Part shown: piece by piece, positions 11,134-52,800 of the stretch
Numbering within the stretch: position 1 is the first letter of the stretch
Layout: the number at the start of each line of letters is the position of its first letter
Source: Candidatus Hermodarchaeota archaeon
Lineage (GTDB): Archaea; Asgardarchaeota; Hermodarchaeia; Hermodarchaeales; Hermodarchaeaceae
DNA length: 58,482 bases
Direction: 5' to 3'
Assembly: GCA_016840065.1 (NCBI GenBank)
Contig: JAEOTB010000018.1
Coordinates: 1-58,482, forward strand
Program-made: the position numbers and the translations under genes
The notes under the pieces: generated by a model
What the model saw: the letters and a program-made list of their open reading frames with translations, nothing else
Database searches by the model: none
What the model was told of the DNA's origin: nothing

Positions 11134-14100
11134 TCAAAGTGTGAAATCAGCAAGTGCCGAATAGCGTTTAGCGTCTTTCCAAAGCGTCTTGGCAACAACA
11201 AGGTAAGCGCTACGCACTGCCTTTCCTCGTGGTGACAGGGTGACTAAATCAACACTCCTCAACAAAATCTGGTGTGGTGGAGTATCCCATACGTCGAAGA
11301 AGCCCTCTGGTCCATGGGGTGCGACTAAGAGAACGGTTTCACCACGTTTGCGGTGCTGCACACCAGCGAAGGGCTGAGTTGTGTCAAGGTATCCGAAGGT
11401 TTTGGTGCGACGTCGGCGTATCGGCCCTAAGGCCCGGGGTGCTACAGTTTCAAGTCCAGTCATCTTTCCCCCAGGTTGTACCGAGGCATGAATTCGATGG
11501 TGTATTTGACGTGGTGCTTTTGTCAAGTTCGTGTAGCGGCTAATTAGGGCCAGTATATTACTCTCTGGGCGAGTTAAAACGAAAAGCTCTATCTTGAAGC
11601 CTTTAAGCGCCTTCGCCTCTTTCTTAGGTCTTGTAGAGATTACAACACCAGTCCAGTCTTTCCGTTTGGCAGGTTTTACGGTCCAACGCTCTTTATCTAA
11701 TTGGGTAGGAATCCATGAATTTGCGCCTGCTGCCCAAGGGTCACACTGAATCCCGCCGTACCATGGGTTGATCCATACCATGGGTCCGGCCTTTGGGAAG
11801 AGTGAATTCAAGTAGTTGATGTCGGTCTCTTTGTCGATAAGGGCGAAAACACTACCAGCAAAGCTGGGTGCAATCTTAATCAGATACGCACCGTTATCAA
11901 CAACAAAGATATCTCTTTCTTCCTCACGCGATTTTGTAACCCTCACCTCCCCAGAAGTACCAGAAAGGATAACAGGTAAATCAAAGACATAATCTCGAAG
12001 CGGTAGTTTCACTTTTGCTTCGAGTGACAGGAGTTCAGGTTTGACATTTGTACTAACATCTAGGGTCAATATCGAATTGAGGTGGAATGGTGTTTTTCGG
12101 TCTATCTTCTCAAATTTCGCAGTGGAGGGTTTAACTTGCCACCCCTTTGGCGGTTTAAGTTGAAGTATACCTTCAATTGGGCGGTGAACACGATGCTGTA
12201 ACACAAGAGGTACAGAAAGTGAATCAGCTGCATCGAGCAGGATAGGTGAAGGTTTGGTCACCACTTCTATTGCTCTCTCAGAACGCATAGAGGGGCGTAC
12301 AGCTTGAGACTGAGGACAGCAGAGTTGATGCCACTGCTCCCTTACATGCCGCCAAGTACCAGGGCCCGCTATTACGTAAAAGGGTGGAAGTGTCAATTCA
12401 CTTCTGGGAGATAGGGGTGGAACTTGTAACTCGAAGTCCAGAAAGTCTCTCCCTGAGACTTTGTAGAGGGTTGTTGGATTACAGAGAATTCCTGTAATTT
12501 CTCCTGTTTCAGGGAATTCTATACAGTACCATGTTTCTGCCCATTCTTTCTTTTCCCTTGGTACTTCTCGACCAGTAGCGAAGAATTCATCCTCTACCAT
12601 CTCCTCACGCAATATTCCATCACTCAGAGGGAGTACATGGATGTGACTGGCACACCAAAGCATCCCCCCTACTTGCATGCGGACCTCATAGGAATTGGAG
12701 GGATGGGTGTTTTGAAATCCATAATCAACACGAACTAGTGATGAGCCGCTCGTTAAAACGTAGGTCTTGGTGAAACGAAGGTTCATGAACTTCTCGCTAT
12801 CCATCCATGTGACTATACGAGTTGTACCGTCACCCGGTTTCTCTATACGGTATTTGAAGTGTGTGCGCATCTGCTCTGACGGCCAAAATGGCGGACCTAA
12901 ACTCTCCCGGAAATGCGCACGAAGATGCTGGCGCCCAGAAACCTTTGTATACAGACGGTCAAGATGAGCACCCTTCATGAGATTTATGTCAAAATGGAGA
13001 TTCTCCGTGTGAACCTGCAGCCGCCGCCCATCATCAAAGGGAGTAACCAATACCCCACCTGACGACAGACAGTGGATGTAGCGGGTTTCAGTACGAGTTC
13101 TGAGTGACCCTCCCTCAACTTGAAGCAAAGAATGGATTTGGATGGGTAATGCAATTGTACCTAGACTGGGGTCGACAGCAACTTCGATGTTAGATCCTGA
13201 GAAGCCTTCTGGCTCAAAGTCCACATCAAATTCGGTTTGGGAAAGACGAACGCCACTCGGCGCGTCAAGGATGACTCTACCCTTTGTTCTCTCCTGAAGA
13301 TTGCTCTTGAGTGTTAGTGAAAGCGTGAGCTGGTTTCCAGGGCGGCACCACAATGTGCGGGGAATGGTGCTGACATCAACAGGATGTTTTGTGCGGAGCC
13401 CTGTTTCCAGATCTAATGGCAAGCCGTCTACGATGAAGTGAGACTTGAGGGTGAAGGCTGCCTTTTCTTCTGGGCGTGGAACTATATCCACTTGTCCCAG
13501 GATAGTCCCCTTGACAGTCACAGTTGCCCCAGGTTCTACTTTCAATTTCCTTGGTGGTTTCTTGGTTAGACGGAATCCTTTTGGAAGGCTGGGGGCGAGC
13601 TGGCATTGTATTGTCTTTTGTTTTCTCTTATTGTGAATAATCCATTCTACCTGAAGCGGGATTCCTAATGGGGGATCTGGATTGGCTACCCAACACTCAA
13701 CAAGTAGTTCATCCGTCTCAACCAATGTAGGCTCCCGACTCTCTCTATCAATGATGACCCGTAACATGTTTCCTTCCGCTTGCCATTTCATATCATACAC
13801 ACGAAGCCCTCGGTGCTTCATGTCATCAGGCTTCTGATCGATTTCCCGAACATAACGGGTGTACCAGTCAGGGTGCTTCTCGAAGAACGGCTGAGCGATG
13901 GGCAACGCCAGAATTAAGGGAATATAGTTCCGCATCCACACGCTAGTTCCTGGCTCCCAGAAGAATCCGGTCCTCTTATACACAGGAACCGCGTTTAGGT
14001 TCCCCGCCCACGTACCTAAGTAAAGTCGTCTGTAGCCTTCCTTTGCCACACGTCGGACAGATTCTATGAGAAGTGCCTTTCCAATGCCCTGCTTCCGGTA

Positions 14101-14364
14101 TGCATCTGCGACATTTAGAAATCCGAGATAGGCTGCCTCCTCATCCTCCCAATGTGGGTGGAGGGTAGAAACACCTACTACCTTATTTCCACTGAGGGCG
14201 ATGAGCCAAGTAATCTTATTTTGTTGCTCCCAGATTTCCAGCTGCCGCTCAGCGGTATGTTGAACACCGCCTGTGATTCCACCTGGCCAGCCCCCCTCAC
14301 TCTCGTTCAGGGACTGGGCATAACTCGCAGCGTCATCTGGCGTGAAGTCTCGGATTTCATGCAT
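11134..14364 (-). CDS. Large multidomain GNAT acetyltransferase (1076 aa)
   Basis: N-terminal GNAT (LNV..YRKQGIGK, TWAGNLNAVPVYKRTGF) followed by ~900 aa of beta-rich domains; paralog at 49825. Confidence 0.85.
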   Translation of the reverse strand: MHEIRDFTPDDAASYAQSLNESEGGWPGGITGGVQHTAERQLEIWEQQNKITWLIALSGNKVVGVSTLHPHWEDEEAAYLGFLNVADAYRKQGIGKALLIESVRRVAKEGYRRLYLGTWAGNLNAVPVYKRTGFFWEPGTSVWMRNYIPLILALPIAQPFFEKHPDWYTRYVREIDQKPDDMKHRGLRVYDMKWQAEGNMLRVIIDRESREPTLVETDELLVECWVANPDPPLGIPLQVEWIIHNKRKQKTIQCQLAPSLPKGFRLTKKPPRKLKVEPGATVTVKGTILGQVDIVPRPEEKAAFTLKSHFIVDGLPLDLETGLRTKHPVDVSTIPRTLWCRPGNQLTLSLTLKSNLQERTKGRVILDAPSGVRLSQTEFDVDFEPEGFSGSNIEVAVDPSLGTIALPIQIHSLLQVEGGSLRTRTETRYIHCLSSGGVLVTPFDDGRRLQVHTENLHFDINLMKGAHLDRLYTKVSGRQHLRAHFRESLGPPFWPSEQMRTHFKYRIEKPGDGTTRIVTWMDSEKFMNLRFTKTYVLTSGSSLVRVDYGFQNTHPSNSYEVRMQVGGMLWCASHIHVLPLSDGILREEMVEDEFFATGREVPREKKEWAETWYCIEFPETGEITGILCNPTTLYKVSGRDFLDFELQVPPLSPRSELTLPPFYVIAGPGTWRHVREQWHQLCCPQSQAVRPSMRSERAIEVVTKPSPILLDAADSLSVPLVLQHRVHRPIEGILQLKPPKGWQVKPSTAKFEKIDRKTPFHLNSILTLDVSTNVKPELLSLEAKVKLPLRDYVFDLPVILSGTSGEVRVTKSREEERDIFVVDNGAYLIKIAPSFAGSVFALIDKETDINYLNSLFPKAGPMVWINPWYGGIQCDPWAAGANSWIPTQLDKERWTVKPAKRKDWTGVVISTRPKKEAKALKGFKIELFVLTRPESNILALISRYTNLTKAPRQIHHRIHASVQPGGKMTGLETVAPRALGPIRRRRTKTFGYLDTTQPFAGVQHRKRGETVLLVAPHGPEGFFDVWDTPPHQILLRSVDLVTLSPRGKAVRSAYLVVAKTLWKDAKRYSALADFTL

Positions 14365-15350: not shown

Positions 15351-17057
15351 CTAGGATGCTATATGGGGACGAACGGGAGCAGACCAGTGCAGATAACGCT
15401 TCGAAACAGGATAATTCTCAAACTGAATCGTGTAATGCTTCTCAAACTTCTCCCTAATCTCGCCTTCCACGATTGCCGCGAGTTCAGGTTCGACATGAGC
15501 ATCAACCCAATAGGACCGCCCCTTCGGCACAGCAACCATCTTACCCCTCTTATGCACAATCCGACCGTCCTTTACGGTATATTCAGCCTGGGAGAAGGCA
15601 CGAACCAACTTGTCGGGACTCGACGCATAATCCTTCTGAGCATCAAGCTTGTAAATAGCAATATCAGCATCCGCCCCCGGACCAAGATGACCCTTACCAG
15701 CCAATCCTAAGGAACGAGCAGGACCAGCACGAGTTGAAATAATGAAATCCTTCAACGAAAACTCAGTATCAAGAGAAGGCAACACCATACGCGCCTTTGC
15801 ACTCCGCTTCATATCACCAAGAATACTTTCACGCGCCTTCCGACTCATCAACCATGCAGCGATATGCGGATAATTTATAAAAGTCCCAGCATTCGGATGA
15901 TCAGTGGTAGGATAGACACGCCAAGGGTCATTCACCATAAGCGCGATTTCAAGACCAATAGCCCACTGAATAGCATTAACCCGAGAACTCTGCTTAAACA
16001 CATAAGGCACAACACCACCACCGCATTCTACCTCAATATCGTCGTTGACCCATCGGCCTCCGGAGATACCTCTGAGGATCCATTCCCAGGGACCGTCAGC
16101 TGTCATTGTGGTTGTGTCGCTGAATACGATTTGTCCTAGGTCGGCGCTGACGTTCTTGTTCTTTTTCAGGAAGTTTGCTATGGGTTCTGCTCCGGAGCGG
16201 AAGCTGGCGAAGTCGTCGCCGCCGTAGCTGTGGAATTGTATGTGGGTCATGTGGAGGTTTGTGCCTGACTCGCGGCTTACTGGGAATTTATTGGCGATTT
16301 CCATGGTGTCTACGGTAATCGCTGTGTTTCCGGGTCGTCCTAGCATGTTGGCGTGGAGGTGGACTGGATGGGGTAGTTTTAGTCGTTCAGAGACTTCCAT
16401 GAGACCGTGGATGACGTCCCGTGAGGTTACATCGAATGCTCGGATTTTTTGGTCGAGTGATTCGACGTTTCCGCCCCAGCTCCAGTCGGCCACGCCTGTG
16501 GGGTTGACGGCTTTGAGGGCGTATCCTTTGGTGGCTCTGAGCATCCAGGCTGCAAAGGCGGCTAGTTTGTCGTAGTCCTTTTCTCGTGAGTATTCCATGA
16601 AGAGCTGGTGGTTTCCGAATAGGGGGAACATGATTTTGTCGAGGGGGTTTATTTCGCCTAGTTCTTCGTGGACGTGTCGAGATACTATTCCTGCTGCGGC
16701 TGCTTCTGTTACGAAGGTGTAGCCCAGCTCGGAGTACTTGTAGCCTGTGATGTGTGTTGGGGGTACGCTTGACCATACTCCTGCACGGCAGACATCTGAG
16801 AAGGTGTAGGGATCCATTCGGGATTGATCACATCGTAGGACTCGTCCGGAGTCCACTTTGGGTGTGGCTAGGTGGGCGTGGATTTCGACGCCGCCTGGGA
16901 CAACTAGGAGTCCTTTTGCGTCGATGATTTCTGCTCCTTCTGAGTCGACGGAGTCAACTACTTTCCCGTCTTTGATTTCGATGTCCTTGACTTCGTGGAT
17001 GTTGTTCTTGGGGTCCACGACGAATCCGTTTCGAATAATCATAGTGCGTTTTTGCAA
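15351..17057 (-). CDS. fwdA: Formylmethanofuran dehydrogenase subunit A
   Basis: PGGVEIHAH, KAVNP, HLHANMLG, HIQFHSYGG, TTMTADGP, TTDHPNAG, GADADIAIY. Confidence 0.96.
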   Translation of the reverse strand: MQKRTMIIRNGFVVDPKNNIHEVKDIEIKDGKVVDSVDSEGAEIIDAKGLLVVPGGVEIHAHLATPKVDSGRVLRCDQSRMDPYTFSDVCRAGVWSSVPPTHITGYKYSELGYTFVTEAAAAGIVSRHVHEELGEINPLDKIMFPLFGNHQLFMEYSREKDYDKLAAFAAWMLRATKGYALKAVNPTGVADWSWGGNVESLDQKIRAFDVTSRDVIHGLMEVSERLKLPHPVHLHANMLGRPGNTAITVDTMEIANKFPVSRESGTNLHMTHIQFHSYGGDDFASFRSGAEPIANFLKKNKNVSADLGQIVFSDTTTMTADGPWEWILRGISGGRWVNDDIEVECGGGVVPYVFKQSSRVNAIQWAIGLEIALMVNDPWRVYPTTDHPNAGTFINYPHIAAWLMSRKARESILGDMKRSAKARMVLPSLDTEFSLKDFIISTRAGPARSLGLAGKGHLGPGADADIAIYKLDAQKDYASSPDKLVRAFSQAEYTVKDGRIVHKRGKMVAVPKGRSYWVDAHVEPELAAIVEGEIREKFEKHYTIQFENYPVSKRYLHWSAPVRPHIAS

Positions 17058-17283
17058 GGCGAAACACCAGCTCAATCTTCGAGTGATATACGGTTTACGT
17101 GCTTAAGGTCTATTAAGGGTTATCAAAGTACGACCTCGGTGGGGTTTGCCTGTGAAAGTTGTGCAAAAATGTGTTCTCTGCGGAAGGCTTTTTTATTGGT
17201 TTGTTGCCGAAGGTCGATATATGCACCGCCGTGCATATCTTAACTGGTCTTGACTAGCCAGACCCAACTCTGAGGTTACTCTC

Positions 17284-18540
17284 ATGCGCCGGGACATGAA
17301 AATCGGGCTCGCCATAGTCACTGCGGCAATAATCATCGCGGGTGGAACCCTCATCCTTCTACCCTATTTCTTACCTCCTTCGCCTCCGAGTGATTCAACT
17401 AGCATCCGAGTTATCGACGGTGACAATGAAGTAAACTTTACAGTTGATCAACTCACCCTGATGAGTGTAATTCAGGGCAACTCGTCATACCAAAACCGCT
17501 TCTACAATTGGGGTGGTAGTGGAGAATACCTAGGTCCACGTCTCTCTACCATTCTTGAAGCTGCCAGCATCACCATTGGCGTAAATGACACTGTGAAAGT
17601 CACGGCTAGCGATGGCTATGCCCAATACTTCGCCTATTACAATCTCTACCCGAACACGAGTTTCCATAATATCCAAGGAGACCTAATCCTCGCTTACTCA
17701 TACAATGGATCCACACCAGGCTCTGATTCTAATCCGTGGCAAGACGGGCCTAGCATCGCCTTCCTACCCTCTGACCAAGGTTACAGCGTCGATGATGCGA
17801 ACCAAACCACCCACCCTGCATGGTTCGATGGTAGTGCAGGCGCCCGCTGGAACAGGAATGTTGTACGAATCGAAGTTCTCCGAGATTCCTACTTTGGTGG
17901 CTTCAACTATATCCGCCTCATTGATGGCGAAGAAGAGGAGAGAGTGTACTGGCTAGAACTTGCTCAGATGAATACTCTAGAAGAATATTCAGCCTATCAG
18001 AAAAAAACGGGCTTCTGGGGTGGTAACGGTACATACATCGGTCCCTTACTTTCAGATGTCGTGGAACTAATCGGAACAATAGACCAAGACGATGTAGTCA
18101 GAGTCAACGCAAGTGATGGCTACTCTGTATCCTATGCACATTATAATCTCTATCCGAACTCCAGCATCTATGAAATCCAGGGGGACTTGATTCTTGCCTA
18201 CTCCTTCAATGGTACAAAGGTTTCTGATTGGGGTGATGGTCCCCAAACGGCCTTCCTCCCATCCGATGAAGCCTATAACAACACAGACGCCGAAGATACA
18301 ACTCATCCCTCTTGGTTCTACGGAAGCGCTGGTGCCAGATGGGTGAGGAATGTACTAACCATAGAAATCCTTTCAAATACATATCCTCCAGTGCCCAAGA
18401 CCTCAGCGTTAACAATCACAAAAACATCCTTGTCAATCCCTGATATTGATGCCCATTCACCTGACTCGCATATTGGAGCGTCAAGTACTTGGATAGCGAT
18501 AGATGGTGCTCCTGCATTAAAACTCCGAGAAGAATTGTGA
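17284..18540 (+). CDS. Membrane-anchored extracellular protein with two molybdopterin-oxidoreductase-like repeats
   Basis: N-terminal TM helix; two ~160-aa repeats each with YxGPxLS, ASDGY, LILAYSxNG, DGP and SAGARWxRNV; many N-x-S/T sequons. Confidence 0.75.
   Translation: MRRDMKIGLAIVTAAIIIAGGTLILLPYFLPPSPPSDSTSIRVIDGDNEVNFTVDQLTLMSVIQGNSSYQNRFYNWGGSGEYLGPRLSTILEAASITIGVNDTVKVTASDGYAQYFAYYNLYPNTSFHNIQGDLILAYSYNGSTPGSDSNPWQDGPSIAFLPSDQGYSVDDANQTTHPAWFDGSAGARWNRNVVRIEVLRDSYFGGFNYIRLIDGEEEERVYWLELAQMNTLEEYSAYQKKTGFWGGNGTYIGPLLSDVVELIGTIDQDDVVRVNASDGYSVSYAHYNLYPNSSIYEIQGDLILAYSFNGTKVSDWGDGPQTAFLPSDEAYNNTDAEDTTHPSWFYGSAGARWVRNVLTIEILSNTYPPVPKTSALTITKTSLSIPDIDAHSPDSHIGASSTWIAIDGAPALKLREEL
17401..18372 (+). 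repeat. Internal tandem duplication (approx. 17401-17880 and 17908-18372)
   Basis: Near-identical blocks NLYPN, IQGDLILAYS, AFLPSD, TTHPxWFxGSAGARW. Confidence 0.9.
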
Positions 18541-18541
18541 A

Positions 18542-19597
18542 ATGAATTCAAATCCCCCGAGCTATTACTTTCGCACTCGAGATTTGGTCACCGTCGGGGT
18601 ACTCAGTGCACTCGGTGGTGCCCTAAGCACTTACGTGGGCTACCTTGGGCGGTTGGTCAACGTTGCAGTTGGAGTACCATTCGGGGCGGGACAATTCCTT
18701 AGTGGATTACATGTATTCTGGATTCTATTAGCAGCTGGGCTGATTCGGAAAGCAGGGGCTGCATCACTCGCAGGTCTAATGAAAGGGTTAGTAGAGTTCT
18801 TCACTGGCAATCCCCACGGTATTGTCATAGTCTTGGTCAGTCTAGCTCAAGGGGTCATCATAGACATCTGCTTGACAGCCTTCCGTCATCGAGATGATCT
18901 TCCCCTCTACTGCATCGTCGGTGGCATAGCCGCAGCATCTAATGTGGTTTTGTTTCAGCTCCTCTACTTCTCAGGTGTACCGCTGATATTCTTCCTGTTA
19001 ATGGTGATTCTTGCCTTTTCCTCCGGCATAATTTTCGCTGGATACTTCGGTAAAGCCACCCTGGATTTAATCATCGAAGCAAATATAACGCGAGGTAGGA
19101 CGACGACAGCTTCACCTTCAACGAAAACCCCTACTCGGCATTATCTCGATCCGTACAAAGTCTCTGCTGTAATCTTCCTCTCAGTAATAGTGATCGGTGC
19201 AGGTCTTTACGCAGTGTTTGTATGGCGACCAGCAGTAGATTCCTTGGGTTGTGACGTAACAGGTAATGTCAGCAATCCCTACAGATTTACCTATTCCGCA
19301 TTCTCTTCTCAAGAGATAATAGTGGAAGCAGAGTTGGTTGGCTCAGTCACCTATGTTCCTCCACAGAATTATACTGGTGTTCCTTTAGCGATTATTCTTA
19401 CATACGCCCAACCATCAGACGATGCTTCTACCTTGCTTGTTTTAGCATCTGATGGCTATTCAGCTACCTTTTCCCTTCTAGATATTCTCGGTGATACAGA
19501 TATCATCATCATCGTCGATAACGGGTTGCGAATCGTCGCGAAATATCATACAGGAGAATTTTGGGTCAGGAAGGTATCTAGCCTTGTCATCAGTTAA
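18542..19597 (+). CDS. ECF transporter S component fused to a C-terminal molybdopterin-oxidoreductase-like domain
   Basis: TRDLVTVGVLSAL S-component start, ~6 TMs plus an extra TM, then VTGNVSNP...YTGVPL...ASDGY...LRIV...WVRKV. Confidence 0.8.
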   Translation: MNSNPPSYYFRTRDLVTVGVLSALGGALSTYVGYLGRLVNVAVGVPFGAGQFLSGLHVFWILLAAGLIRKAGAASLAGLMKGLVEFFTGNPHGIVIVLVSLAQGVIIDICLTAFRHRDDLPLYCIVGGIAAASNVVLFQLLYFSGVPLIFFLLMVILAFSSGIIFAGYFGKATLDLIIEANITRGRTTTASPSTKTPTRHYLDPYKVSAVIFLSVIVIGAGLYAVFVWRPAVDSLGCDVTGNVSNPYRFTYSAFSSQEIIVEAELVGSVTYVPPQNYTGVPLAIILTYAQPSDDASTLLVLASDGYSATFSLLDILGDTDIIIIVDNGLRIVAKYHTGEFWVRKVSSLVIS

Positions 19598-21185
19598 CAA
19601 GGGGAATTCCTCGTCAACTCCGGTCATTGAGGTAGATGATTTTTCCTTCACCTACGCAGGTACTAACGAACCAGTTCTCCACAACATTTCGTTGACTATT
19701 CGAGCAGGGGAATTCGTTCTACTCGCAGGTCCGAGTGGTTGTGGTAAGAGTACACTTACTCGCAGTCTTGCTGGTTTCATCCCCCATGAATTCACAGGTG
19801 AATCCGATGGTACAATTCGTATTCAGGGCGTTGACACGCGCACGCTTCCAATCTATGAACTCTCGAAAACAATCAGCTTAGTACAACAGGACCCCGATAG
19901 TCAGATTGTCACACTTAATGTAGTCGATGAAATAGCGTTTGGTCTAGAAAATTTCCTGACTCCACCATCTGAAATTCCGCCGCGAATTAAATCAGCTTTA
20001 GACGCAGTCAATGCAGAAAAACTAGAGAACCGAAGCACATCTACCCTTTCTGGGGGAGAAAAACAAAAAATCACTCTCGCTTCATTCTTGGCTCTTCAAC
20101 CTCCAATCCTTCTACTAGACGAGCCCACTGCCCGCCTTGACCCACCTACCACACGCGAAGTAATATCTACTCTAGCCCATCTGAACCAGGTTTCGGGGAC
20201 TACAATCCTTGTTGTCGATCACCGAATATCACAACTTCTACCAATATCATCACGATGCCTACTAATGGATGCAGGGCGCATCGTCTTCGATGGAAGCCCT
20301 TCCCAACTACGTCAAAACCCTTTGACTCTCCAGAAGCTAGGTGTTTATCTTACTCCCATGGAAAACACCAGTTCATCTACATCAAGCTCAGAAAGAAAAT
20401 CTACGCCTCTCCTCTCAGTTCAAGGACTAGAATTCTCCTATCCCAAAACCTCTGTTTCACCAAATGGATTTGCGCTCAAAGACGTCTCATTTACTATTTC
20501 TCCAGGAGAACTAGTTGGTATCATTGGAGCTAACGGCTCAGGAAAGACAACCCTACTACAACATCTGATAGGCCTGTTATCACCCGAGAGTGGAACTATC
20601 GAATTAAACGGACAATCAGTTCAAGACCGCCAAGTTTCTGAACTAGCAAGCGATGTAGGATTTATATTCCAAAACCCTCTCCACCAGCTCTGTGAACGAC
20701 GCGTCTGGGATGAACTGCTTCTTGCCAGCCATCATCTCAAGAAACCTACACCTGATGAAGCAGAGATGCGCGCAGAGTCACTGATGACACATTTTGGTCT
20801 AAATAATTACAGAAATCGTTCTCCCTTTTCTCTCAGTATTGGAGAGCAACGCCGCCTTACAATTGCCTCCATTCTGGTCCACAGACCTAACCTTATTCTC
20901 CTTGATGAGCCCTTTATCGGGCTAGATTATCGAAACGTCAATCAAATAATGACAGTAATCAAACAGGCCTCTAACGGGGGGGTCGCTGTTCTCCTGGCAA
21001 CACACGATCCAGCAGTAGTTAGTGCCTACTGCAACCGTCTTCTCTTCCTCAGCGAGGGCAAGCTAGTTCTAGACGCTCCAGTTCATCAAGCCTTCTCTCG
21101 TTTAGAACAGCTTGGTGAAATCGAATTTATACCACCGCACTTGAGAAGGTCATTTACGGTTTGGGAGGTGCCAACAAGAAAGTGA
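19584..21185 (+). CDS. ECF transporter duplicated ATPase (EcfA-EcfA')
   Basis: GPSGCGKS and GANGSGKT Walker A motifs, QDPDSQ/QNPLHQ, LSGGE, LLDEP twice. Confidence 0.93.
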   Translation: MSSVNKGNSSSTPVIEVDDFSFTYAGTNEPVLHNISLTIRAGEFVLLAGPSGCGKSTLTRSLAGFIPHEFTGESDGTIRIQGVDTRTLPIYELSKTISLVQQDPDSQIVTLNVVDEIAFGLENFLTPPSEIPPRIKSALDAVNAEKLENRSTSTLSGGEKQKITLASFLALQPPILLLDEPTARLDPPTTREVISTLAHLNQVSGTTILVVDHRISQLLPISSRCLLMDAGRIVFDGSPSQLRQNPLTLQKLGVYLTPMENTSSSTSSSERKSTPLLSVQGLEFSYPKTSVSPNGFALKDVSFTISPGELVGIIGANGSGKTTLLQHLIGLLSPESGTIELNGQSVQDRQVSELASDVGFIFQNPLHQLCERRVWDELLLASHHLKKPTPDEAEMRAESLMTHFGLNNYRNRSPFSLSIGEQRRLTIASILVHRPNLILLDEPFIGLDYRNVNQIMTVIKQASNGGVAVLLATHDPAVVSAYCNRLLFLSEGKLVLDAPVHQAFSRLEQLGEIEFIPPHLRRSFTVWEVPTRK

Positions 21186-22012
21186 CGAGAAGAAGCCTCT
21201 CTTTCGGATATCATCCTCACAGCTCTATTATTCACCGTTTGAATCCATTGACCAAACTTGTAGCCTTGATCTGTTTTGCCATCCTCGCTGTGATGCTTAA
21301 CTCAGATTTCATCTCTCTTGTCCTTCTTGCCTTTCTCCTCCTCTCTTACTTCGGTGCAGGAATAAGTCTACGTCACGTTATTAGCCGCCTGCGTAGCCTC
21401 CTCGTCTTCGCCCTCCTCATCGCTGTTGTTCAGTTAATCTTCACCTCCTATGGCACTCTTCTCTTCTTCCTTATTCCACCTCTTGTACCTGGATTCGGCC
21501 CCTTCTTCTCCATCACCATGACAGGTGTTGCGAATGCAATTATCCTAGGTCTCAGGCTAATCAACATTGTACTTGCCAGTGCCCTATTTATCGCAACCAC
21601 TGACCCGACACTCTTCGCGGTTACTCTAACTCGTCTCAGGATTCCTTATCGCTACAGCTTCCTGCTTGTATTGACATTACGATTAGTACCACTCTTCGAC
21701 CAAGAATCCGCAATTGTTCAAAACGCTCAACGTACCCGCGGAATCCCCGTGGATCGGGGAATCCTCCGTGGGTTCCTAACTAGAATTCGGTACACCTTCT
21801 TTCCACTCATCTTTTCCGCGTTAAGCCGCGTTGACAACCTCACCCTTGCAATGGATGGTCGTGGATTCGGATACGCTAAAACACGCACATATCACAGACA
21901 GTCTAACTTTAGCAGCGTTGATTGGATTGTTACATTAGCTTGCCTAATTATTACCATTTTTCTCCTCTGGCAATTCACCTTCGTTCTACAACTGCCCAGC
22001 TTATTCGGATAG
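21161..22012 (+). CDS. ecfT: ECF transporter transmembrane component T
   Basis: HRLNPLTK, AQRTRG and AMDGRG conserved Arg motifs. Confidence 0.92.
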   Translation: MGGANKKVTRRSLSFGYHPHSSIIHRLNPLTKLVALICFAILAVMLNSDFISLVLLAFLLLSYFGAGISLRHVISRLRSLLVFALLIAVVQLIFTSYGTLLFFLIPPLVPGFGPFFSITMTGVANAIILGLRLINIVLASALFIATTDPTLFAVTLTRLRIPYRYSFLLVLTLRLVPLFDQESAIVQNAQRTRGIPVDRGILRGFLTRIRYTFFPLIFSALSRVDNLTLAMDGRGFGYAKTRTYHRQSNFSSVDWIVTLACLIITIFLLWQFTFVLQLPSLFG

Positions 22013-22109: not shown

Positions 22110-22862
22110 TCATGCCGGTTTCATAGCTTTGATTTTCGAGCTAACAACAGCACCGGAGCCATCTCGTCCGAGTACCTCGACTTTCTCAAACCCTGCGTCT
22201 CGAAGCAGCTGCAAATACTCTGCTTCAGGAATTGCCCCAGCAATACAGCCAGTATAGCTGTGCACTGATTCTTGAATCTCCTTGGGTAATTCTCCAACTA
22301 GGACCATATCGGATACAAGTAGCCGACCTCCAGGGCGAAGCACTCGGAAAGCCTCTTGGAAGACTTTGGTCTTGTCTGGTGCCAAGTTGATGACGCAATT
22401 TGAGATGATTACATCAACCGAGTTATCTTCAACTGGAAGGGCTTCGATATCACCCTGCCTGAACTCAACGTTTGTTATACCAAGTTTGGTTGCATTGTCA
22501 CGAGCTTTTTGAAGCATTTCTTCTGTCATATCAACTCCAATGACAAAACCGGTCTCTCCGACCTCTTTGGCTGCAAGAAAGGCATCAAGACCAGCACCAC
22601 TACCCAGGTCTAGAACGACCTCTCCTTCATGGAGGCTTGCTAGGGCGGTGGGGTTGCCGCAACCTGCGAAGGACTCAGTTACACTGGCTGGTAGGTGATC
22701 GACATCATAGCCTAACCGCGCTGCTAAGCTATCTGTAGAACAGGATGTGTCCTTATCACAGCAGCTGCCCTGTCGGGCACTAGCTACTCTCGCATAGGCT
22801 CTTCGAACCTCGTCTTTGATTTCTTCGTCAGATAATTCTGAGACTTGCTTTGGTTTACCCAT
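22110..22862 (-). CDS. arsM: Arsenite S-adenosylmethionine methyltransferase
   Basis: CC pair, [29 protein letters not shown]. Confidence 0.9.
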
Positions 22863-22880
22863 GGTTATTCGCCGATGAGA

Positions 22881-22940
22881 TATTGGGTGTCCAATACTGT
22901 GAGTGTAAGCAGAGAATTTAAATGTATCGGGCATCCAATA
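22881..22940. promoter_or_regulatory. Twin inverted operators around a central TATA-like element of the arsM/PadR divergon
   Basis: TATTGG-GTGT-CCAATA (22881-22896) and TATCGG-GCAT-CCAATA (22925-22940), with AATTTAAAT between them. Confidence 0.7.
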
Positions 22941-22949
22941 TTGACTTGT

Positions 22950-23294
22950 ATGTCACCTAAAGAACAAGAAGAACAATGTTGTCCACCTGACTGTTGCGAT
23001 ATGCGAGGTTTGCTCTCCTTCCAAATTCTATGGTTACTCAGTAGAAAACCGATGAACGGACAACAAATTGCCCAGGAACTCGCACAACGACGTGGCAGCA
23101 AACCCACGCCAGGTACTATCTATCCCGCCCTTAAAGAACTCGCAAACAAGGGCCTCATCCAACCCAACCGTACAGGGCGCCAGGTAGTCTATAAACTCAC
23201 CGAGGAAGGAAAAGAAGGGCTTGTTGACGCCCGACGTTACTTCATTCAGGTCTTTGGCGAAATCTTCGAAGAAGAATACGGACAAGTATGCTAA
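22950..23294 (+). CDS. PadR-family regulator with N-terminal CCxxxCC motif
   Basis: CCPPDCCDMRGLLSFQILWLL, PGTIYPAL, YKLTEEG. Confidence 0.88.
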   Translation: MSPKEQEEQCCPPDCCDMRGLLSFQILWLLSRKPMNGQQIAQELAQRRGSKPTPGTIYPALKELANKGLIQPNRTGRQVVYKLTEEGKEGLVDARRYFIQVFGEIFEEEYGQVC

Positions 23295-29640: not shown

Positions 29641-31047
29641 TTAGGTGCGCTTGTATCGCTTGATGCCCTTCAGACGACACACCTCGCGTACTAACATATC
29701 GAGGATGTACTCATCACTCTCAATCCCCTTCGGGGCATCGATAATCTTCCGTAATTGCAAGGGTATTCCGTCCATTCGATAAGCTGTCTGGATGCCTTCT
29801 GCCTCAATTCCAACATAAGCAGAGGGGATTACGATGTCTGAGATTTCAGTTGTTGCCGAACGCTTTGGATCAATTGTGATTAAAGGCACTTTCAGCATGT
29901 GTTTTACAGCTGCAGCTGGGAGAGAAGCAGCTGGGTCAGCGGCAACGATGAATACAGCATCGGTTCCACCCCTAGCTAGAACATCAACTGCGCTTGTCTC
30001 GCCAGGCATGTAGTAAGGAGCTCCTGTTTCTAGGCTGACTGAGAAGGGGAAACCGTAGGTCCAAGTACTGACGTGATTTGAACCATTGACATTGAAGTGA
30101 CCCCGCATAGGCATAATCACTGCCTTGGCATGATGATTGAGCTCTGCAGTGAGGTCAATTGCTTGTGTTATGTTGTGATCCTTTCCTTTGCTCTGAGTTA
30201 AGCCCAACCCGAAGAAGATTGCAACGAACTCTGCACTCTTCAGTGTTGCAACAAACTCTCGTACCTTTCGCATTGGAATGCCAGCTACTGATTCCCTTTG
30301 AATTTCTCGTCCACGAAGCATCGCACGAATTACAGCCATGAGTTCGTAATCCTCATTGGGATTGACTTGGATAAACTCTGTGACCTCATCTGAGAATCGT
30401 GTCGGTCGGACATCGATGTGATAGACCTTCCGTTCTCCTTCCTTGCGAAACATGCCTTCAATGAACTGAGAGTATCGGCGGGTATGGCGTGGGTGTGCTG
30501 CGACTGGATTGCAGCCCCAGTAGATTACTACATCAGCATAATTCTTGATTTTACCTAGGGTTGCGGTTCCGATGCCAGCGCGTTGAACTGCTTCAATTCC
30601 AGGACCATGACAAACCGATGATGTATTGTCTACAACGCCGCTACATACTTCAGCTAATTCCAGCGCCTTTACATTAGCCTCGTTTGAGGTGCTTGCAAGT
30701 CCATAAATTAGTGGGCGTCTTGCCTTGGCAAGGATTTTCGCCGCTTCTTTCACAGCCACTTCTAGTGAAACTTGACGCACCTCTGACTTGTCAGGGCCTG
30801 AGCGAAGTTCAGGTTTTAGGATACGGTGCTCATCGCGCAGTTTTAGGAACTTTGTGTGTCCAATGCGGCAAGCGTTCAACGCCTCAATGATTGTACCTTC
30901 TGGTACGCGTGGGAGGGGACCAGTAAGCGTAATCGCTACCTGTATATCATCACAAAGCGCTCCACAGAAAACACACACAACGTTTTTGACGATACGAGCA
31001 CGGGGAGTCGCGAGTATACCTGCAGTTTCTGTCGGATCAGTAGTCAT
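29641..31047 (-). CDS. fwdB: Formylmethanofuran dehydrogenase subunit B (Cys form)
   Basis: CVFCGALCDD, SVCHGP, YWGCNP, HPRH, MRGHFNV. Confidence 0.95.
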   Translation of the reverse strand: MTTDPTETAGILATPRARIVKNVVCVFCGALCDDIQVAITLTGPLPRVPEGTIIEALNACRIGHTKFLKLRDEHRILKPELRSGPDKSEVRQVSLEVAVKEAAKILAKARRPLIYGLASTSNEANVKALELAEVCSGVVDNTSSVCHGPGIEAVQRAGIGTATLGKIKNYADVVIYWGCNPVAAHPRHTRRYSQFIEGMFRKEGERKVYHIDVRPTRFSDEVTEFIQVNPNEDYELMAVIRAMLRGREIQRESVAGIPMRKVREFVATLKSAEFVAIFFGLGLTQSKGKDHNITQAIDLTAELNHHAKAVIMPMRGHFNVNGSNHVSTWTYGFPFSVSLETGAPYYMPGETSAVDVLARGGTDAVFIVAADPAASLPAAAVKHMLKVPLITIDPKRSATTEISDIVIPSAYVGIEAEGIQTAYRMDGIPLQLRKIIDAPKGIESDEYILDMLVREVCRLKGIKRYKRT

Positions 31048-31059
31048 AGCACAATTCCT

Positions 31060-31458
31060 CTATTTTGTAGTTGCTCGAAGCTCAGCAAATAGTTCTTGGA
31101 GAGTAAGCACCTGCTTGCCTGGTGCAGGACTGATTGTTGCCTTAAGCCCTTTCATTGTTGGCATACCGGTGCTGTCCGTTTCAGCACCAATAAGGAGATT
31201 GGCCCATGGACCGTATGGGATAAAGGCTATGCCAGGGCTTGGTCTGGGAGCGACAACTGCTTTTAATATGACGTTGCCATGCTCTGTTTTGACTTCCACA
31301 GTATCTCCAGCTTCTACTCCTATTTTCTCAATATCAGAAGGGTCGAGTCGAACCTGTGTTGTTGACTCGAAATAAACGTCGCTGAGCTTTCCGAGTTCAA
31401 GACCAACTCCTTGTCTTCTAGTTCGACCTGTGAGTAAAATAACTTCCAAGCTAGGCAT
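31060..31458 (-). CDS. fwdD: Formylmethanofuran dehydrogenase subunit D
   Basis: LLTGRT..QG, FIPYGPWAN, TGMPTMKG; start re-called at ATG31458. Confidence 0.93.
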   Translation of the reverse strand: MPSLEVILLTGRTRRQGVGLELGKLSDVYFESTTQVRLDPSDIEKIGVEAGDTVEVKTEHGNVILKAVVAPRPSPGIAFIPYGPWANLLIGAETDSTGMPTMKGLKATISPAPGKQVLTLQELFAELRATTK

Positions 31459-31521
31459 GCAATATACTACTCCTGATAGCATTCGTTTAGCGTCTACCTC
31501 AATAAATCTCTTGCTCAAGTA

Positions 31522-32553
31522 TTAGAGGGTTACAATCCATCCTTTTGTGGTGATAGTGCCGATAACAACCTGGTGTCGTAAAAGTTGTCCCTCTTTATCT
31601 TTCACCTCTTCTAGTATCCCGTGAACTCGTACTCTATCGCCTTGACTTGCACACCCGGCGAAAATCCCTTCGAAAGATTCAACTCGGTTGATCAATGGTA
31701 GCTTCTGGGGTCCTTTGATGATTCTTACGTCATCAATACCGAAAATTACTGGTGCAAACAAGCTTTCACTATCATCTGTGATGGTGGCCAAGAGTTCTAC
31801 AGGTTCTAGAGCAGTGTAGTACTCTTCTCCATATATGCTAGTATTTTCATCATCTGTTCTAGTGGGGTGAAGGTGGAAGGGTGTGCCGTCGATACGGCCT
31901 CTAAGCCAGTGTGGGCAGACTATCTGGTCTTTGTATTTTTCAGGAATCCCAAGAAGTTGAGCTCTCTGGCGCTGCCATCTCTTTATCGCCTTAGAGGAGT
32001 GAGGTTCCAATTCACCCTCATATATTGAATCAGTTGATTCACGAATTCTTCGAGCATAAACGTCACTAAGGACTGTCATGTTAATGTCAGAATATCGTGG
32101 ATTATGAGTTCCCAGCAGAATCGAACCAGTTACGCCAAACTTACTAGCTGGTACACCCGTTGACTCTGAGAACTGGTCTACTAGGCGGATTGTTTTTGCC
32201 TCCAAAGAATCCTTTGCTCCCTCTAGCATTTCAAGAAGCCGTTCTTCTGGAATATAATAGCGAGTAACGCGTTTTCGTGGAACCAAGGGAAGCTCAATTC
32301 CGCGCACATCGCAGAATGATAGGTAGTCAGGATGGTTCTCGCGAAGCCAGCTGGTACCAGCTTGAATTTTTGCTGCGCTGTAAAGGTGAATCATTCTCTG
32401 ATAGCGAATACCTTTTCGTTTCCATTTCCCTTCCTGCCCAGGTCGATACTTGAGGTACACAGTATACTTGTCAGGTGGATGAAGGTACCCAACCACACAG
32501 AAAATCAATCCTTCTGAGGTCTCGACGAAATCTTTGTCCTTAGGCTTTCGCAT
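31522..32553 (-). CDS. Archaeal predicted nucleotidyltransferase (COG1665-like), degenerate DxN motif
   Basis: DFVET.EGLIF.V.G..HP, GVTGSIL...SDIN, C-terminal OB-like region. Confidence 0.8.
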   Translation of the reverse strand: MRKPKDKDFVETSEGLIFCVVGYLHPPDKYTVYLKYRPGQEGKWKRKGIRYQRMIHLYSAAKIQAGTSWLRENHPDYLSFCDVRGIELPLVPRKRVTRYYIPEERLLEMLEGAKDSLEAKTIRLVDQFSESTGVPASKFGVTGSILLGTHNPRYSDINMTVLSDVYARRIRESTDSIYEGELEPHSSKAIKRWQRQRAQLLGIPEKYKDQIVCPHWLRGRIDGTPFHLHPTRTDDENTSIYGEEYYTALEPVELLATITDDSESLFAPVIFGIDDVRIIKGPQKLPLINRVESFEGIFAGCASQGDRVRVHGILEEVKDKEGQLLRHQVVIGTITTKGWIVTL

Positions 32554-33576
32554 CTACACTAACCGCTCCGGGATAAGAAGGTCTTGTGGATTACCGCCAA
32601 GTATGAACCTGGTCCACTGCTCATTCTTTGTAATCACTTCCTCTAAAGCTCCCCTGACAATGGCTATATCCCCTCTTTGGACCTGTTCGCTGAATCGACC
32701 CCTGAAGCTCACAATTTCTTTTACCCTTTTAGCACGAAGTATGCTTACTTCTCGTATTTTGTAACAGCAAGGTGTAAACAACCCTTCTGAGTGGTCTGTG
32801 ATGTGGACTCGCGCTCTGGCATATCCGATTTGTCGATAACAGCGTTCACCGTACTCTTCGTCAACCTCATCCCAATCTAAGACAGCGCGAATGAAATAGT
32901 GTCTCCCGTTGAATGTGCCATGCATTGCCTTTGCTCGGTCGATCTCTAGTGCCTCCTCAAAGGTAATGCCACTGTTCTTCCATCGCAGATTGAAAATCGG
33001 CTGATAGGTGTCTTGGGTATATTCTTTGATTCGATGTTTTTGTGTTTGATGAATCCGCTGTAAAGCTGCCTGAACTGCTAGGGCAGGATGGCGGCCATAA
33101 ACAATGAGGTCGATATCCGAGTCAGCTTCGTGTAAGGCCACCAGAATGCTTCCAGATATCCCCAGCGCAGTCATTTCGATGTCTGCTTCTTTTTGGATTA
33201 TTCTAGCAAGATTGACAGCATCTTCTTGTAGAGCGTCTCTTTTCCCTTGATTCTCGAGTTGTTCTAACACCTCAATGGGCTTGTATACTTGGCTAATTGA
33301 TGATAAGGGAATTCCTTGAAGCATTAGTCCAAATATAGGGTCTTCGTACAGGAACTGAGGATAGTTTTTACGCAGAATATCAAATCGCTCATCAATGTTG
33401 TAGACTTTTCCGTAGGTGCGCCCTGCTCGTATACGAGAACCAGTTTCAAGGGGATAATATCGTAAAAAAGCAACAACTCGGTCTAGTGGGTGGACCAATC
33501 CCTTCACATCGAAAATGAGCCCTTCCAGTGTCTCAATGAAATCACCTTCACGGGCAGTTCGATTTGACATATCCAT
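32554..33576 (-). CDS. Archaeal predicted nucleotidyltransferase (COG1665-like)
   Basis: EGDFIET.EGLIFDVKG..HP, GISGSIL...SDIDLIVYG, SFRGRF. Confidence 0.85.
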   Translation of the reverse strand: MDMSNRTAREGDFIETLEGLIFDVKGLVHPLDRVVAFLRYYPLETGSRIRAGRTYGKVYNIDERFDILRKNYPQFLYEDPIFGLMLQGIPLSSISQVYKPIEVLEQLENQGKRDALQEDAVNLARIIQKEADIEMTALGISGSILVALHEADSDIDLIVYGRHPALAVQAALQRIHQTQKHRIKEYTQDTYQPIFNLRWKNSGITFEEALEIDRAKAMHGTFNGRHYFIRAVLDWDEVDEEYGERCYRQIGYARARVHITDHSEGLFTPCCYKIREVSILRAKRVKEIVSFRGRFSEQVQRGDIAIVRGALEEVITKNEQWTRFILGGNPQDLLIPERLV

Positions 33577-40829: not shown

Positions 40830-41468
40830 GTGATTAAAGCGAGTATCGCAATTCTTGCAGGCGGGCAGAGTAACCGGTTCCAGAGACCCAAGGCATTCGC
40901 TGAAGTGGCGGGCAAACCTCTGATACTCCATACCTTTGAAGCCTGCAAAGCTCATACTGACGATGTTATCATAGTTGTCCACACCGAAGAAGATCGCGCA
41001 CAATTCGAAGAGTTCTTTGAAAAGGATCAGGTTGTTGTCGATGTCGTACAAGAACCGATATGCCCCCTTGTTGGTGCGCTCACAGCCTTCAAGCACGCTA
41101 GCAATCCCTATACTCAGCTACTCCCCTGCGACTCACCTCTCATCCATCCAATCTTCTTCGAAATCCTATGGGGCATGGTTGAGAGCTACCAAGCTGCTGT
41201 TCCCCGATGGCCAAACGGGTGGATTGAACCCCTCCACTCAGTTTATCACACAGAGACTGCAACACAAATCGCAGAACAATGCTTGTCAAAGAATGAAATC
41301 CGTATGCGCTTACTTATTGCCGCTCTTAACCGGGTCATCTACCTCTCAACCAACGCACTACAACGCTTCGACCCAAAACTCCGAACATTCCTAAATGTCA
41401 ACACACCAGCGGACCTACAAAAACTCCAAAAAATACTAGATCGAAAAAGGCGTACCGATTCCATGTAA
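40830..41468 (+). CDS. mobA: Molybdenum cofactor guanylyltransferase
   Basis: ILAGGQSNRF, KAF, PCDSP, EPLHSVY, NVNTPADL. Confidence 0.92.
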   Translation: MIKASIAILAGGQSNRFQRPKAFAEVAGKPLILHTFEACKAHTDDVIIVVHTEEDRAQFEEFFEKDQVVVDVVQEPICPLVGALTAFKHASNPYTQLLPCDSPLIHPIFFEILWGMVESYQAAVPRWPNGWIEPLHSVYHTETATQIAEQCLSKNEIRMRLLIAALNRVIYLSTNALQRFDPKLRTFLNVNTPADLQKLQKILDRKRRTDSM

Positions 41469-49824: not shown

Positions 49825-52800
49825 ATGACAGAAGAACTAGGCATAGAAATAGTTGAAGGCTACCGCGAAGATCTCGCTTCACGAATAGCCGACATGTTTA
49901 ACGGATGGGATGAATTGTGGCCTGGTGGCTTCACAGGAGGCGTCCCATACACCGCAGAACGAGTACACAAAATCTACTCCAAAATGCGGGCAATCACGAT
50001 TCTAATAGCAATGGACAAAGACAAACCTGTTGGTTTTCTTTCTCTACTACAACACTGGCGAGACCCCGAAGCCGCCTATATCGGACTCCTCGGGGTTTCC
50101 CCAGAAGCCCTAAAGAAAAAGGTAGGCAAACGCCTCCTCCTACGAAGCATTGCCATCGCCACCGAAAAGGGCTATCTTCGCGTAGACCTGAACACATGGG
50201 CTGGAAACCTTCGCGCGGTTCCTCTCTACAAGAAAATTGGGCTGATGTGGAATCCTGAAACAGATGGTGTTTATCTCCAAGGCTGGATTTCTGGAATCCT
50301 TCAACATCCTCTGTGTGCTCCGTTTTTCCAGAAGCACTCTGACCCAGCGGCATGGTATGATCTTCAGCAACGGGAACTCACTCAAGCCCCTGATGATATG
50401 AAGGAAGGAAAGATGAATGTCTTTATCTACGAGTTCAAAGCGGGGGAGGATAATCTCAGGGTTATTGTTGATCGATATGCTCGAGCCATAACAGGAATAG
50501 AGCGAATCATCGATGGAGAGCGCCTAAAGGTCAATGCACGCGTACCTGACCAATTAACCCTTTGCGGTATTCCCTCCTCATACTTGCTTGAAATTACAAA
50601 CGAGACAAAGGAGGATATTGAACTCTCCGTTTCGCTAGAGGGTTTCGATGCACTTCACTTTGAAGAAAAATATGAAAATACCATGAAGGTTCCTGCTGGA
50701 AAATCCTCGGTTTGGTCAGTGCCCTTCCATCTTGATTCCTCGGCAGTCGTCTTCCGTAAAGAACTAAAATCTCCATCAATTAAAGCCGAGTTGAAGCTAG
50801 CCGAAACCGAATTTATACTACACACTGGTTTGAAGATAAAACCCGCTGCCGAAATAAGTACGCAATTTGGCGAAACACGAATAGTACCAGGGGGTACAAC
50901 GCAGCTCCCCCTCACAATCACAAGTAATGCCTCCACATCTCTTCGAGGAAAACTTCGTTTCGACACCCCAAGTGCATCTCTTACTGTATCGCCGATGGAA
51001 TACGATGTAGAGCTTACACCAGAGGGGCTCTCTGGTGCAGTGATTGAGGTTTCTGCCAAGAAGGATTCGCCTCCTGGGACATATGATCTGTTGGCTGCAC
51101 TCCACCTTCAAGAAAAGACCAGCAAGGGTTTGAAGGTGACCACAAGGAAATATCGCATACCAATCTATTGCATCCCAGAGGGAGGAGTGACTGTAGGCGA
51201 AGATGACCGTACGCGCGAACTCCATGTTGTTAGCACGGATTACTCTACTCGTATCGCTCGGGAAGGTGGTCAAATACAAATCCTTAGCCAACTAGAACAA
51301 GTCCCTTCACTAGTACTAAGGAATGAAGTAGGGCCTCCCTTTGGCCTCAGTCCTTTCCGATTCGCTGAACAAGAAATAGATATTGACCAATCTAATTCAT
51401 CAACAATCGTTTCACTAACCGCAGTTCACCCAGAACGCCCCCTCAAGATAGTAACCAGACTCACATTCCCTCATAACTCTTCTCAAATTTCCCAGGAAAC
51501 ATTAGTGAGAAACACTAGTAACGAAGAACATAGTTTCCAACTAAGACTCATAGGTCCAGGAGGAGGAATATCCCTAAGCACTGGAACAGCCATCATCCCC
51601 TTGGCATCTGGTATTGTCGAAGGACCAACTACTAGTAGCTTAGTGAGCTATCCCTCCATTCAAACTAGTCCAGAAGTCTTTGGCGAAGAATGGGTCGCCA
51701 TCAAGGGAGAATCACTAACAATTGGTCAGGTATGGGATCCTGAGAACCTAGAAGAAATATATGTGAATACCGGGCGTATCAGCCAAATCCAGTATCGCCA
51801 AGTTACTCTAGGGCCTGGTGAACAGAAGTGCCTCTCAAGAATTTGGCACATTGCGGGTGCGCCAGACTGGACCACAATCCAACGAGTTTGGCAGGAAAAA
51901 ATCAAGCATCAAATTCCCCAATTAAGCGAGTTGCGAGAGCCCACCGAGACTACGCCGGTTCTACGGATTACTCCCCCAACAATCGTGCTTTCTCACAGGC
52001 AAAAAGTTAGTCGCGAATTCCCGATTCGATATCAAGCGAATTCACCCTTGTCAGGTCCCCTATCCATTGAACCTCTGAAGGAATGGTCCACTAAGCTAGA
52101 GCTTCTCGACACAGAAAGCGATACCTCACCTATCATGCTTTCCGAAATAACCAGTAACAACCTCCCCAACCTCCGCTTAACACTATCACCAACTAAATCT
52201 ACACCTGATAGATTCGCTCTCTTCAAGGCAAATATGGCTTGGCAGACTCCTGTTCTAACACGCCAATCTTTCTCGATTGTTCAACTAGGCACAGCAGGTA
52301 GCAAGGTCGGCATCTCAGAGGAGCGCGAAGAGGACTTGAGAGTGTTTCGAGTGAAAAATGGTATACTCGAGTTTGCAGTGTCACCAGACTTCGGAGGATG
52401 CCTTTACTCACTAAAGAATCATCAAGGAACAGAAATGCTCTGCTCAGCGTACCCAACACCGCAGCCAAAAATATTCATACAGAACTATTATGGTGGAATT
52501 CAATCAGTCATATCAGGGGTGGATGAGGATTTCTTACAAGCAAAGACAAATAGGGAAAAAATGGATGCCACCCCTTGCACATTGGGAAAACTCTGGAAGG
52601 GTGTCGAAGTATCTTGGCGGAGTGAGTTGCAACCTGTCTGTCGAGGTGCAGAGTTCAAAATACGATATCTCACGGCACCCGGAAGTCCACTGATACTGAT
52701 GGACTGGCATTTCATAAACAAAACATCAGCTCCACTCCGGCTGTTCACAGTACAATTAATGGATGTCGGCTTTAATGGCAGTGTGCATGAAACTGTACTG

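Follow-up and report, generated by a model that had tools for sequence, protein, structure and literature searches.

The window analysed in this study comprised 58,482 nucleotides of a Candidatus Hermodarchaeota archaeon (positions 1 to 58,482 of contig JAEOTB010000018.1, assembly GCA_016840065.1). Four same-strand open reading frames (ORFs) at 17284-22012 (+) composed an importer operon of the energy-coupling factor (ECF) type, whose likely substrate, a metal-loaded tungsten (W) or molybdenum (Mo) pyranopterin cofactor, is the subject of this report. ORF1 (17284..18540, +, 418 aa) encoded a surface protein, a candidate for cofactor capture, in which a single N-terminal hydrophobic transmembrane (TM) helix (aa 5-33; 17296-17373, +) preceded two repeats of the sulfite oxidase (SUOX)/PruR fold (17395-17889 and 17899-18381, +). 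These were 53% identical to each other, were recognised by PF00174 in two stretches (E 6.5e-7) and were recovered in the predicted model. A sequence scan of ORF1 revealed 11 N-glycosylation sequons and no Cys at all, and the protein is predicted to be glycosylated and located outside. ORF2 (18542..19597, +, 351 aa) belonged to the YkoE family of S components (PF09819, E 1e-21, above cut-off), and its model displayed six core helices (S core, 18575-19078), a seventh TM helix (aa 204-226; 19151-19225) and then a soluble domain, the third Cys-less copy of the SUOX/PruR fold (19238-19594, +).

The two remaining genes coded for the motor of the importer. The fused EcfA-EcfA' double ATPase (19584..21185, +; best matches TIGR04520/TIGR04521) contained two Walker A, two signature and two Walker B motifs, and the coupling subunit EcfT (21182..22012, +; PF02361, E 1e-27) two A-x-x-x-R-G coupling motifs. 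From the lengths of their homologs, TTG 19584 is the probable start of the ATPase (533 aa) in place of the ORF-finder position 19491, and GTG 21182 that of EcfT (276 aa) in place of 21161. S component, two ATPase domains and EcfT were thus encoded together, as in group-I ECF systems, and the four-gene layout put forward in the original prediction was borne out by Pfam matches, motifs and models. Close homologs were labelled Hermodarchaeota or Promethearchaeota. The DNA was found in sequencing runs of marine sediment metagenomes, and the search listed no RNA run among those carrying it.

All three domain copies displayed the skeleton Y.G[PV].L / ASDGY / W[NV]R.V, on which the original prediction had based a resemblance to molybdopterin-binding enzymes; motif inspection confirmed the skeleton and structure searches the resemblance. 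The models (predicted local distance difference test 84-86; 84 for ORF1) adopted the fold of the sulfite oxidase Mo cofactor (Moco) domain, with PruR as top structural match (Z 15.3-15.4, root mean square deviation (rmsd) 2.6-2.8 A over 132-137 residues), followed by SUOX, SorA, SoxC and YedY (Z 10-14). Likewise, the domain fused to the S component gave a profile match to SoxC (E 1.3e-5). A single-sequence search of the PDB with ORF1 yielded no meaningful match. In the sequence alignment, the hairpin before the Gly was in ungapped register with Escherichia coli MsrP, and the position of the Mo-ligating Cys (12 residues before the Gly) was occupied by R72, Lys and G267 in the three copies; the Cys residues of ORF2 lay elsewhere (110, 124 and 237 only). 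The position thus holds Arg, Lys or an invariant Gly. The absence of the Cys, also part of the original prediction, was shared by all 241 anchored homologous domains. By the criterion of the missing Cys, the three domains are not enzymes. The same genome encoded a canonical, Cys-bearing PF00174 protein (G000:C76:4981-5559, locus L098), which represents another cofactor client.

PruR also has no Mo-ligating Cys, and its Y104 and W160 sandwich the pterin ring (PMC11194511). The Tyr of ASDGY (Y112/Y280/Y306) and the Trp of W.R.V (W189/W353/W341), both conserved across the domain family, correspond to this pair by motif, without superposition.

At the level of the S component, the sole relative of ORF2 in the PDB by sequence was YkoE (5EDL, E 5e-10), and the S core matched this structure by fold (TM-score 0.79, rmsd 2.2 A), thereby displaying the six-helix S fold. 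Two of the four YkoE residues that we take to be pocket positions were kept (E75 and Q93, aligned with E85 and Q103), and the two others, Y44 and W47, were replaced in the S component family by Ser/Ala and an invariant His. The fusion of S core and Cys-less domain was found in at least 656 proteins, distributed among Asgard archaea, Thermoplasmatota and anaerobic Bacillota.

The genome harbouring the operon (83.9% complete) encoded two AOR-family enzymes (AORs), Fwd, a MobA-like protein and RFAP synthase. None of moaC, moeA, moaE, moaB, moaD and moaA was found in it above cut-off, nor any TupA-like or ModA/WtpA-like protein. The same combination was observed across a sample of 201 Asgard genomes, each at least 80% complete. 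The fused S component occurred in 55 of them, all with AOR (55/55), none with moaC, one with moeA and two with tupA, while among the 146 genomes without it moaC was recorded in 86 and moeA in 89. Since 28 of the 55 carriers were at least 90% complete, incompleteness cannot explain the exclusion pattern. It was also repeated within families: family f6 (n=49) comprised 32 S-positive and 17 moeA-positive genomes with an overlap of one, both states occurred within each of the genera g36 and g50, the sole S-negative genome of family f1 was also its sole moeA-positive one, and the single moeA genome of family f20 had no importer.

A split form of the importer (anchored domain, standalone S component, ATPase and EcfT) was met while examining Asgard genomes that had neither the fused S component nor synthesis genes. 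It was present in 23 further Asgard genomes, 21 of which had no moeA and no moaC. In genome G168, the split operon was followed on the same strand by moaC-moaA-moaD-moaE-moeA-moaB-moeA (moaD, moaE and moaB being named by inspection). Altogether, 75 of the 201 Asgard genomes carried an importer, fused or split, and no moeA. Outside Asgard archaea, moaC/moeA occurred in one of 21 Thermoplasmatota carriers and moaC in 65 of 116 non-carriers; AOR was present in 48 of 50 non-Asgard carriers.

Regulation pointed to the same cofactor in both domains of life. Of 33 loci scanned, 13, all of them bacterial, had RF01055, the Mo/W cofactor riboswitch, on the coding strand at the start of the gene run, and a good number of the negative loci were cut off upstream. 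It stood directly before the S gene in L067 and before a kinase gene in L047, whereas in L084 it was followed by two tupA genes and then the S gene. Four aligned copies had no stem P3, a form described as the tungsten-type signature (PMC2408646, PMC11725836). Taken by itself, however, this element does not identify the substrate, since W cofactor (Tuco) riboswitches of Eubacterium limosum control tupABC and even iron transporters (PMC11725836). No cobalamin, flavin mononucleotide or folate (tetrahydrofolate, THF) riboswitch was detected in the 33 loci, and none of their operons was led by a thiamine pyrophosphate (TPP) riboswitch of the kind that controls YkoE; the single TPP element (L082) was separated from the Moco element by 2.4 kb and lay on the opposite strand. 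An Rfam scan of the window between 14 and 24 kb gave no match, and a search of the whole genome with RF01055 found none.

In Hermodarchaeota, the operon was preceded by a palindromic operator. It was a perfect 8-4-8 inverted repeat (17218..17239, no strand; consensus GATATGCAC-N4-GTGCATATC), situated 45 nt upstream of the first start codon of the operon, and a whole-genome scan for a wider regulon recovered it as the only site with at most two mismatches. It preceded the operon in 16 related Hermodarchaeota loci, mostly downstream of a TATA-like element, and remained with the ECF operon where another gene separated the latter from fwdA. Four carrier genomes displayed it once each, before the importer operon. 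Among the sampled Hermodarchaeota genomes, G063 alone combined de novo cofactor genes with the lack of an importer. There, the operator (one mismatch) was separated by 40 nt from moaB-moeA-MOSC-moaA-moaC downstream of it and immediately followed tupABC and a ModE gene, where 0.02 sites were expected by chance in the locus; two sites with two mismatches preceded unrelated genes. One regulator thus appears to treat importer and biosynthetic operon as alternatives, as far as this single prototroph genome indicates.

The gene neighbourhood was surveyed in 82 loci (17 from Hermodarchaeota and 65 others), and two enzymes were found to travel with the importer. A metallophosphoesterase was encoded in 52 of the 65 non-Hermodarchaeota loci, and 46 of 54 such proteins were fused to a SUOX/PruR-fold domain and had signal or anchor helices by prediction. 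In 34 of these 65 loci, the gene of an APH/RIO-like kinase was present. In family f6, this kinase was found in 31 of 32 S-positive and in none of the 17 remaining genomes, and in family f9 it often lay 5-7 kb from moaC. The ortholog in the genome under study was located on another contig (G000:C34:40-1319, locus L097; E 4e-56), where its gene was divergent from a ModE-like helix-turn-helix (HTH) gene without Mop domain, a pair also present in G063. These two proteins are a candidate pyranopterin kinase and a candidate regulator, respectively. No operator-like site was found in the kinase/ModE-like intergenic region, and the ModE-like protein is no more than a candidate regulator. The joint presence of APH-like kinase and surface phosphoesterase suggests a cycle of dephosphorylation, import and rephosphorylation.

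In our judgement, the operon probably encodes a dedicated ECF importer by which cofactor auxotrophs salvage the metal-loaded W (or Mo) pyranopterin cofactor, and the W/Mo-pterin branch of the original prediction was supported by riboswitch, phyletic and operator evidence alike. Its computed basis comprised the architecture and fold, the missing Cys, regulation shared with cofactor synthesis and, in archaea, near mutual exclusion with moa/moeA/tupA. The imported species is most likely metal-bearing, because insertase and oxyanion transporters were missing together with the pterin pathway, with a MobA-like gene kept. Somewhat more cautiously, we favour the wider proposal that a transporter dedicated to the intact W/Mo cofactor, metal included, is seen here for the first time, that phosphoesterase and kinase complete a salvage pathway and that more than one third of the sampled Asgard archaea depend on it. 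No ECF or other prokaryotic importer of Moco or Tuco was found described in the full-text literature, most subscription papers being beyond the reach of the search, and the substrate class is probably new.

The following mechanism can be envisaged from sequence and models. The cofactor, possibly dephosphorylated, would be taken up from anoxic surroundings, so that AOR-family and Fwd enzymes could run without de novo synthesis. As in PruR, the pterin ring would be held between two residues of the outward Cys-less domains, the Tyr of DGY and the late Trp, and these domains would protect and concentrate the labile cofactor without ligating its metal. The S core would then take over the cofactor and topple, driven by EcfAA'T. 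In most lineages, though none was found in this one, a surface phosphoesterase may trim phosphate or nucleotide (guanosine monophosphate) outside, and the APH-like kinase may restore the side-chain phosphate inside, before MobA and apo-enzymes use the imported product. Finally, the palindrome would allow a repressor to shut the operon, and the ModE-like HTH protein encoded next to the kinase may be that repressor.

Several observations weigh against this salvage of an intact cofactor. The pocket of PruR, with its truncated hairpin, was reported to be too shallow for Moco, and its ligands are small pterins (PMC11194511). The PruR-type truncated hairpin with its Pro-Trp motif was absent from the operon domains and, because their hairpin is not truncated by sequence register, there may be room for a pterin larger than the ligands of PruR. 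Free Moco is unstable and oxygen-sensitive (PMC7849362). The S component is YkoE-like, i.e. of the thiamine/hydroxymethylpyrimidine (HMP) family, by sequence as well as by fold. The exclusion of synthesis genes was archaeal only, since 25 of 29 bacterial carriers retained moaC and moeA, which fits regulated salvage and is not itself support for it. In addition, AORs without either moeA or importer were recorded in 36 genomes out of the 201, from f4, f25 and further Asgard families, so that other routes or assembly gaps exist. The genomes are metagenome-assembled and kin are not independent, so that Fisher tests overstate the association; weight was placed instead on the contrasts that recurred inside families, and none on P values. 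Finally, no phosphoesterase ortholog was found in the genome under study (best E 1.5e-6 with the family hidden Markov model), an absence in Hermodarchaeota that salvage leaves unexplained, and the kinase also occurs in the importer-negative G063.

Among other explanations, import along the same pathway of an earlier, metal-free substrate (apo-molybdopterin, metal-free dephospho-molybdopterin or cyclic pyranopterin monophosphate), with the metal inserted inside by an unrecognised route, has a small but real chance of being correct. Riboswitch, operator and clustering would suit any pyranopterin species, the missing Cys removes the metal ligand of the protein, and the riboswitch-led run of L084 includes two tupA genes. 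Yet most carriers had no moeA (54/55) and no tupA (53/55), moaC was absent as well, and the genome under study, without moaE and ModA/WtpA, offers no known route for converting cyclic pyranopterin monophosphate or for loading apo-molybdopterin. We regard it as very improbable that the surface domains merely strip or degrade exogenous cofactor and that the ECF system imports only tungstate, molybdate or another metal complex. ECF systems for Co and Ni do exist and carriers have no tupA, but metal alone would be useless to cells that keep many AORs without moaA/C/E and moeA, and the S component belongs with YkoE, a vitamin-binding type, and not with CbiM/NikM. That Tuco riboswitches also govern tupABC and iron transporters in Eubacterium limosum (PMC11725836) would suit metal import too.

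The S core itself, PF09819- and 5EDL-like with E85 and Q103 kept, could suggest a YkoE-like importer of thiamine/HMP, or one of cobalamin, in which the surface domains are incidental and phosphoesterase and kinase act on thiamine monophosphate or TPP. A phosphatase and an APH-family kinase would suit thiamine salvage, ThiK being APH-like. The original prediction had named clustering of the S component with thiamine systems as an argument against itself, and in this respect the outcome was mixed: family membership was indeed YkoE-type, whereas several pocket positions differed (Y44 and W47 replaced) and regulation was not thiamine-type, with no operon led by a TPP or cobalamin riboswitch and the lone TPP element of L082 facing away. 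As the moa exclusion would also be left unexplained, we give this explanation scant credence. Import of another pterin, i.e. tetrahydromethanopterin (H4MPT), its precursors or a folate, would be in keeping with the non-Moco pterins bound by PruR (PMC11194511) and with the genes for H4MPT enzymes (mch, ftr and fwd) in the window. It is equally hard to sustain, since RFAP synthase is retained, the linkage to fwdA is limited to Hermodarchaeota, no THF riboswitch was seen in the scanned loci, and neither the moa exclusion nor the operator swap would be accounted for. The methanopterin alternative of the original prediction is accordingly unlikely, regulation being of Moco/Tuco type.

The genomic context cited in the original prediction was only partly informative. 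The window did contain fwdA (15351..17075, -; TIGR03121 above cut-off) divergent from the operon, fwdD-fwdB (29641..31518, -; TIGR03129 above cut-off, PF01568), which encode a bis-molybdopterin guanine dinucleotide W/Mo enzyme and hence a cofactor client, a fwdC-like gene, mch, ftr and a mobA-like guanylyltransferase gene (40830..41468, +; PF12804, best NCBIfam match MobA, E 1.7e-33, below cut-off). Adjacency to fwdA did not stand as functional evidence: it was recorded in 15 of 17 Hermodarchaeota loci (some with an intervening gene) and in none of the 65 others, and was rejected as lineage synteny, fwdA lying outside the conserved module. Other genes in the window included an arsenite methyltransferase-like gene (22110-23294) convergent with ecfT, found beside the operon in five Hermodarchaeota loci and divergent from the gene of a PadR/ArsR-like regulator whose N-terminus is rich in Cys. 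Two proteins of about 1080 aa with similar N-termini were encoded at 11134-14364 and 49825-53118; the former began with a GNAT domain, the long rest of the protein being without annotation, and was conserved beside fwdA in Hermodarchaeota. Tandem paralogous genes (31522-33576) lay directly upstream of fwdD-fwdB.

Additional proteins carrying a SUOX/PruR-fold domain were encoded in 80 of the 82 surveyed loci. In the Bacillota loci L002, L030, L039, L047 and L084, the domain occurred inside S-layer-anchored proteins of 1200-2000 aa adjoining purple-acid-phosphatase-like proteins, and a second riboswitch of the W type governed some of them. In Desulfuribacillus (L001, 1-1404 and 11808-17056), five upstream domain-bearing genes were flanked on one side by an iron/B12-type ATP-binding cassette (ABC) binding protein and on the other by a cluster of oxidoreductase genes linked to fdhE. 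Anchored surface proteins preceded the split importer in three Asgard genomes (L099:11635-14022, L094:8927-10979 and L102:10953-13105), and one of these, searched against NCBIfam, gave no match. Genome G115 (family f4), with AORs and without moa genes or ECF S component, encoded a two-domain surface protein of the Cys-less family divergent from a sugar-type ABC transporter (L093:3179-8735), possibly a second, non-ECF cofactor route.

If salvage of the metal-loaded cofactor holds, many Asgard archaea and Thermoplasmatota would be W/Mo-cofactor auxotrophs relying on their neighbours and the W cofactor would be a cross-fed vitamin, a dependence relevant to their resistance to cultivation as well as to syntrophy in sediments and digesters. 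With a named prokaryotic importer, cofactor transport becomes directly testable, and cofactor-stabilising proteins together with a candidate pyranopterin kinase could aid the loading of recombinant W enzymes. In known ECF importers the S component is itself the binding protein (PMC5997447), to which the present system would add an architecture with tethered outward binding domains.

Overall, the importer would work in the manner of group-I ECF systems for vitamins. With YkoEDC of Bacillus subtilis (5EDL; predicted thiamine/HMP), it shares S family and fold, a dedicated fused double ATPase and EcfT, all in one operon. It differs by the seventh TM helix, the outward SUOX/PruR domain, extra surface proteins and changed pocket residues, and by a Moco/Tuco riboswitch or an operator shared with moa genes instead of a TPP riboswitch. 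PruR (7KOM, 7KP2, 7KOS and 7RKB; PMC11194511) has in common with the operon domains the Cys-less SUOX fold, the extracytoplasmic site and the Tyr/Trp pair. Yet PruR is one periplasmic protein that serves DcpA-type regulators as sensor, its hairpin is truncated and a Trp stands in place of the Cys, whereas the importer domains are repeated, membrane-tethered or transporter-fused, 12-17% identical to it and endowed with a hairpin of MsrP length. Likewise, the PruR gene lies directly upstream of that of a DcpA-type regulator, and ORF1 is followed instead by S component, ATPase and EcfT.

Members of the sulfite oxidase family (MsrP/YedY, SorA and SoxC; PF00174) share fold and motif skeleton with the importer domains, which, judging by the models, are devoid of the catalytic N-terminal extension and of the dimerisation domain in addition to the Mo-ligating Cys. 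ECF-CbrT (nrdJ-cbrS-cbrT-pduO; PMC5997447) follows the same logic, in that an auxotrophic cell takes up a metal cofactor whole by way of an ECF transporter and matures it inside, although S family and cofactor are different and SUOX-fold domains are absent from that system. In Caenorhabditis elegans, protein-bound dietary Moco passes between organisms without biosynthetic enzymes, by a eukaryotic transport pathway stated to be unknown (PMC7849362).

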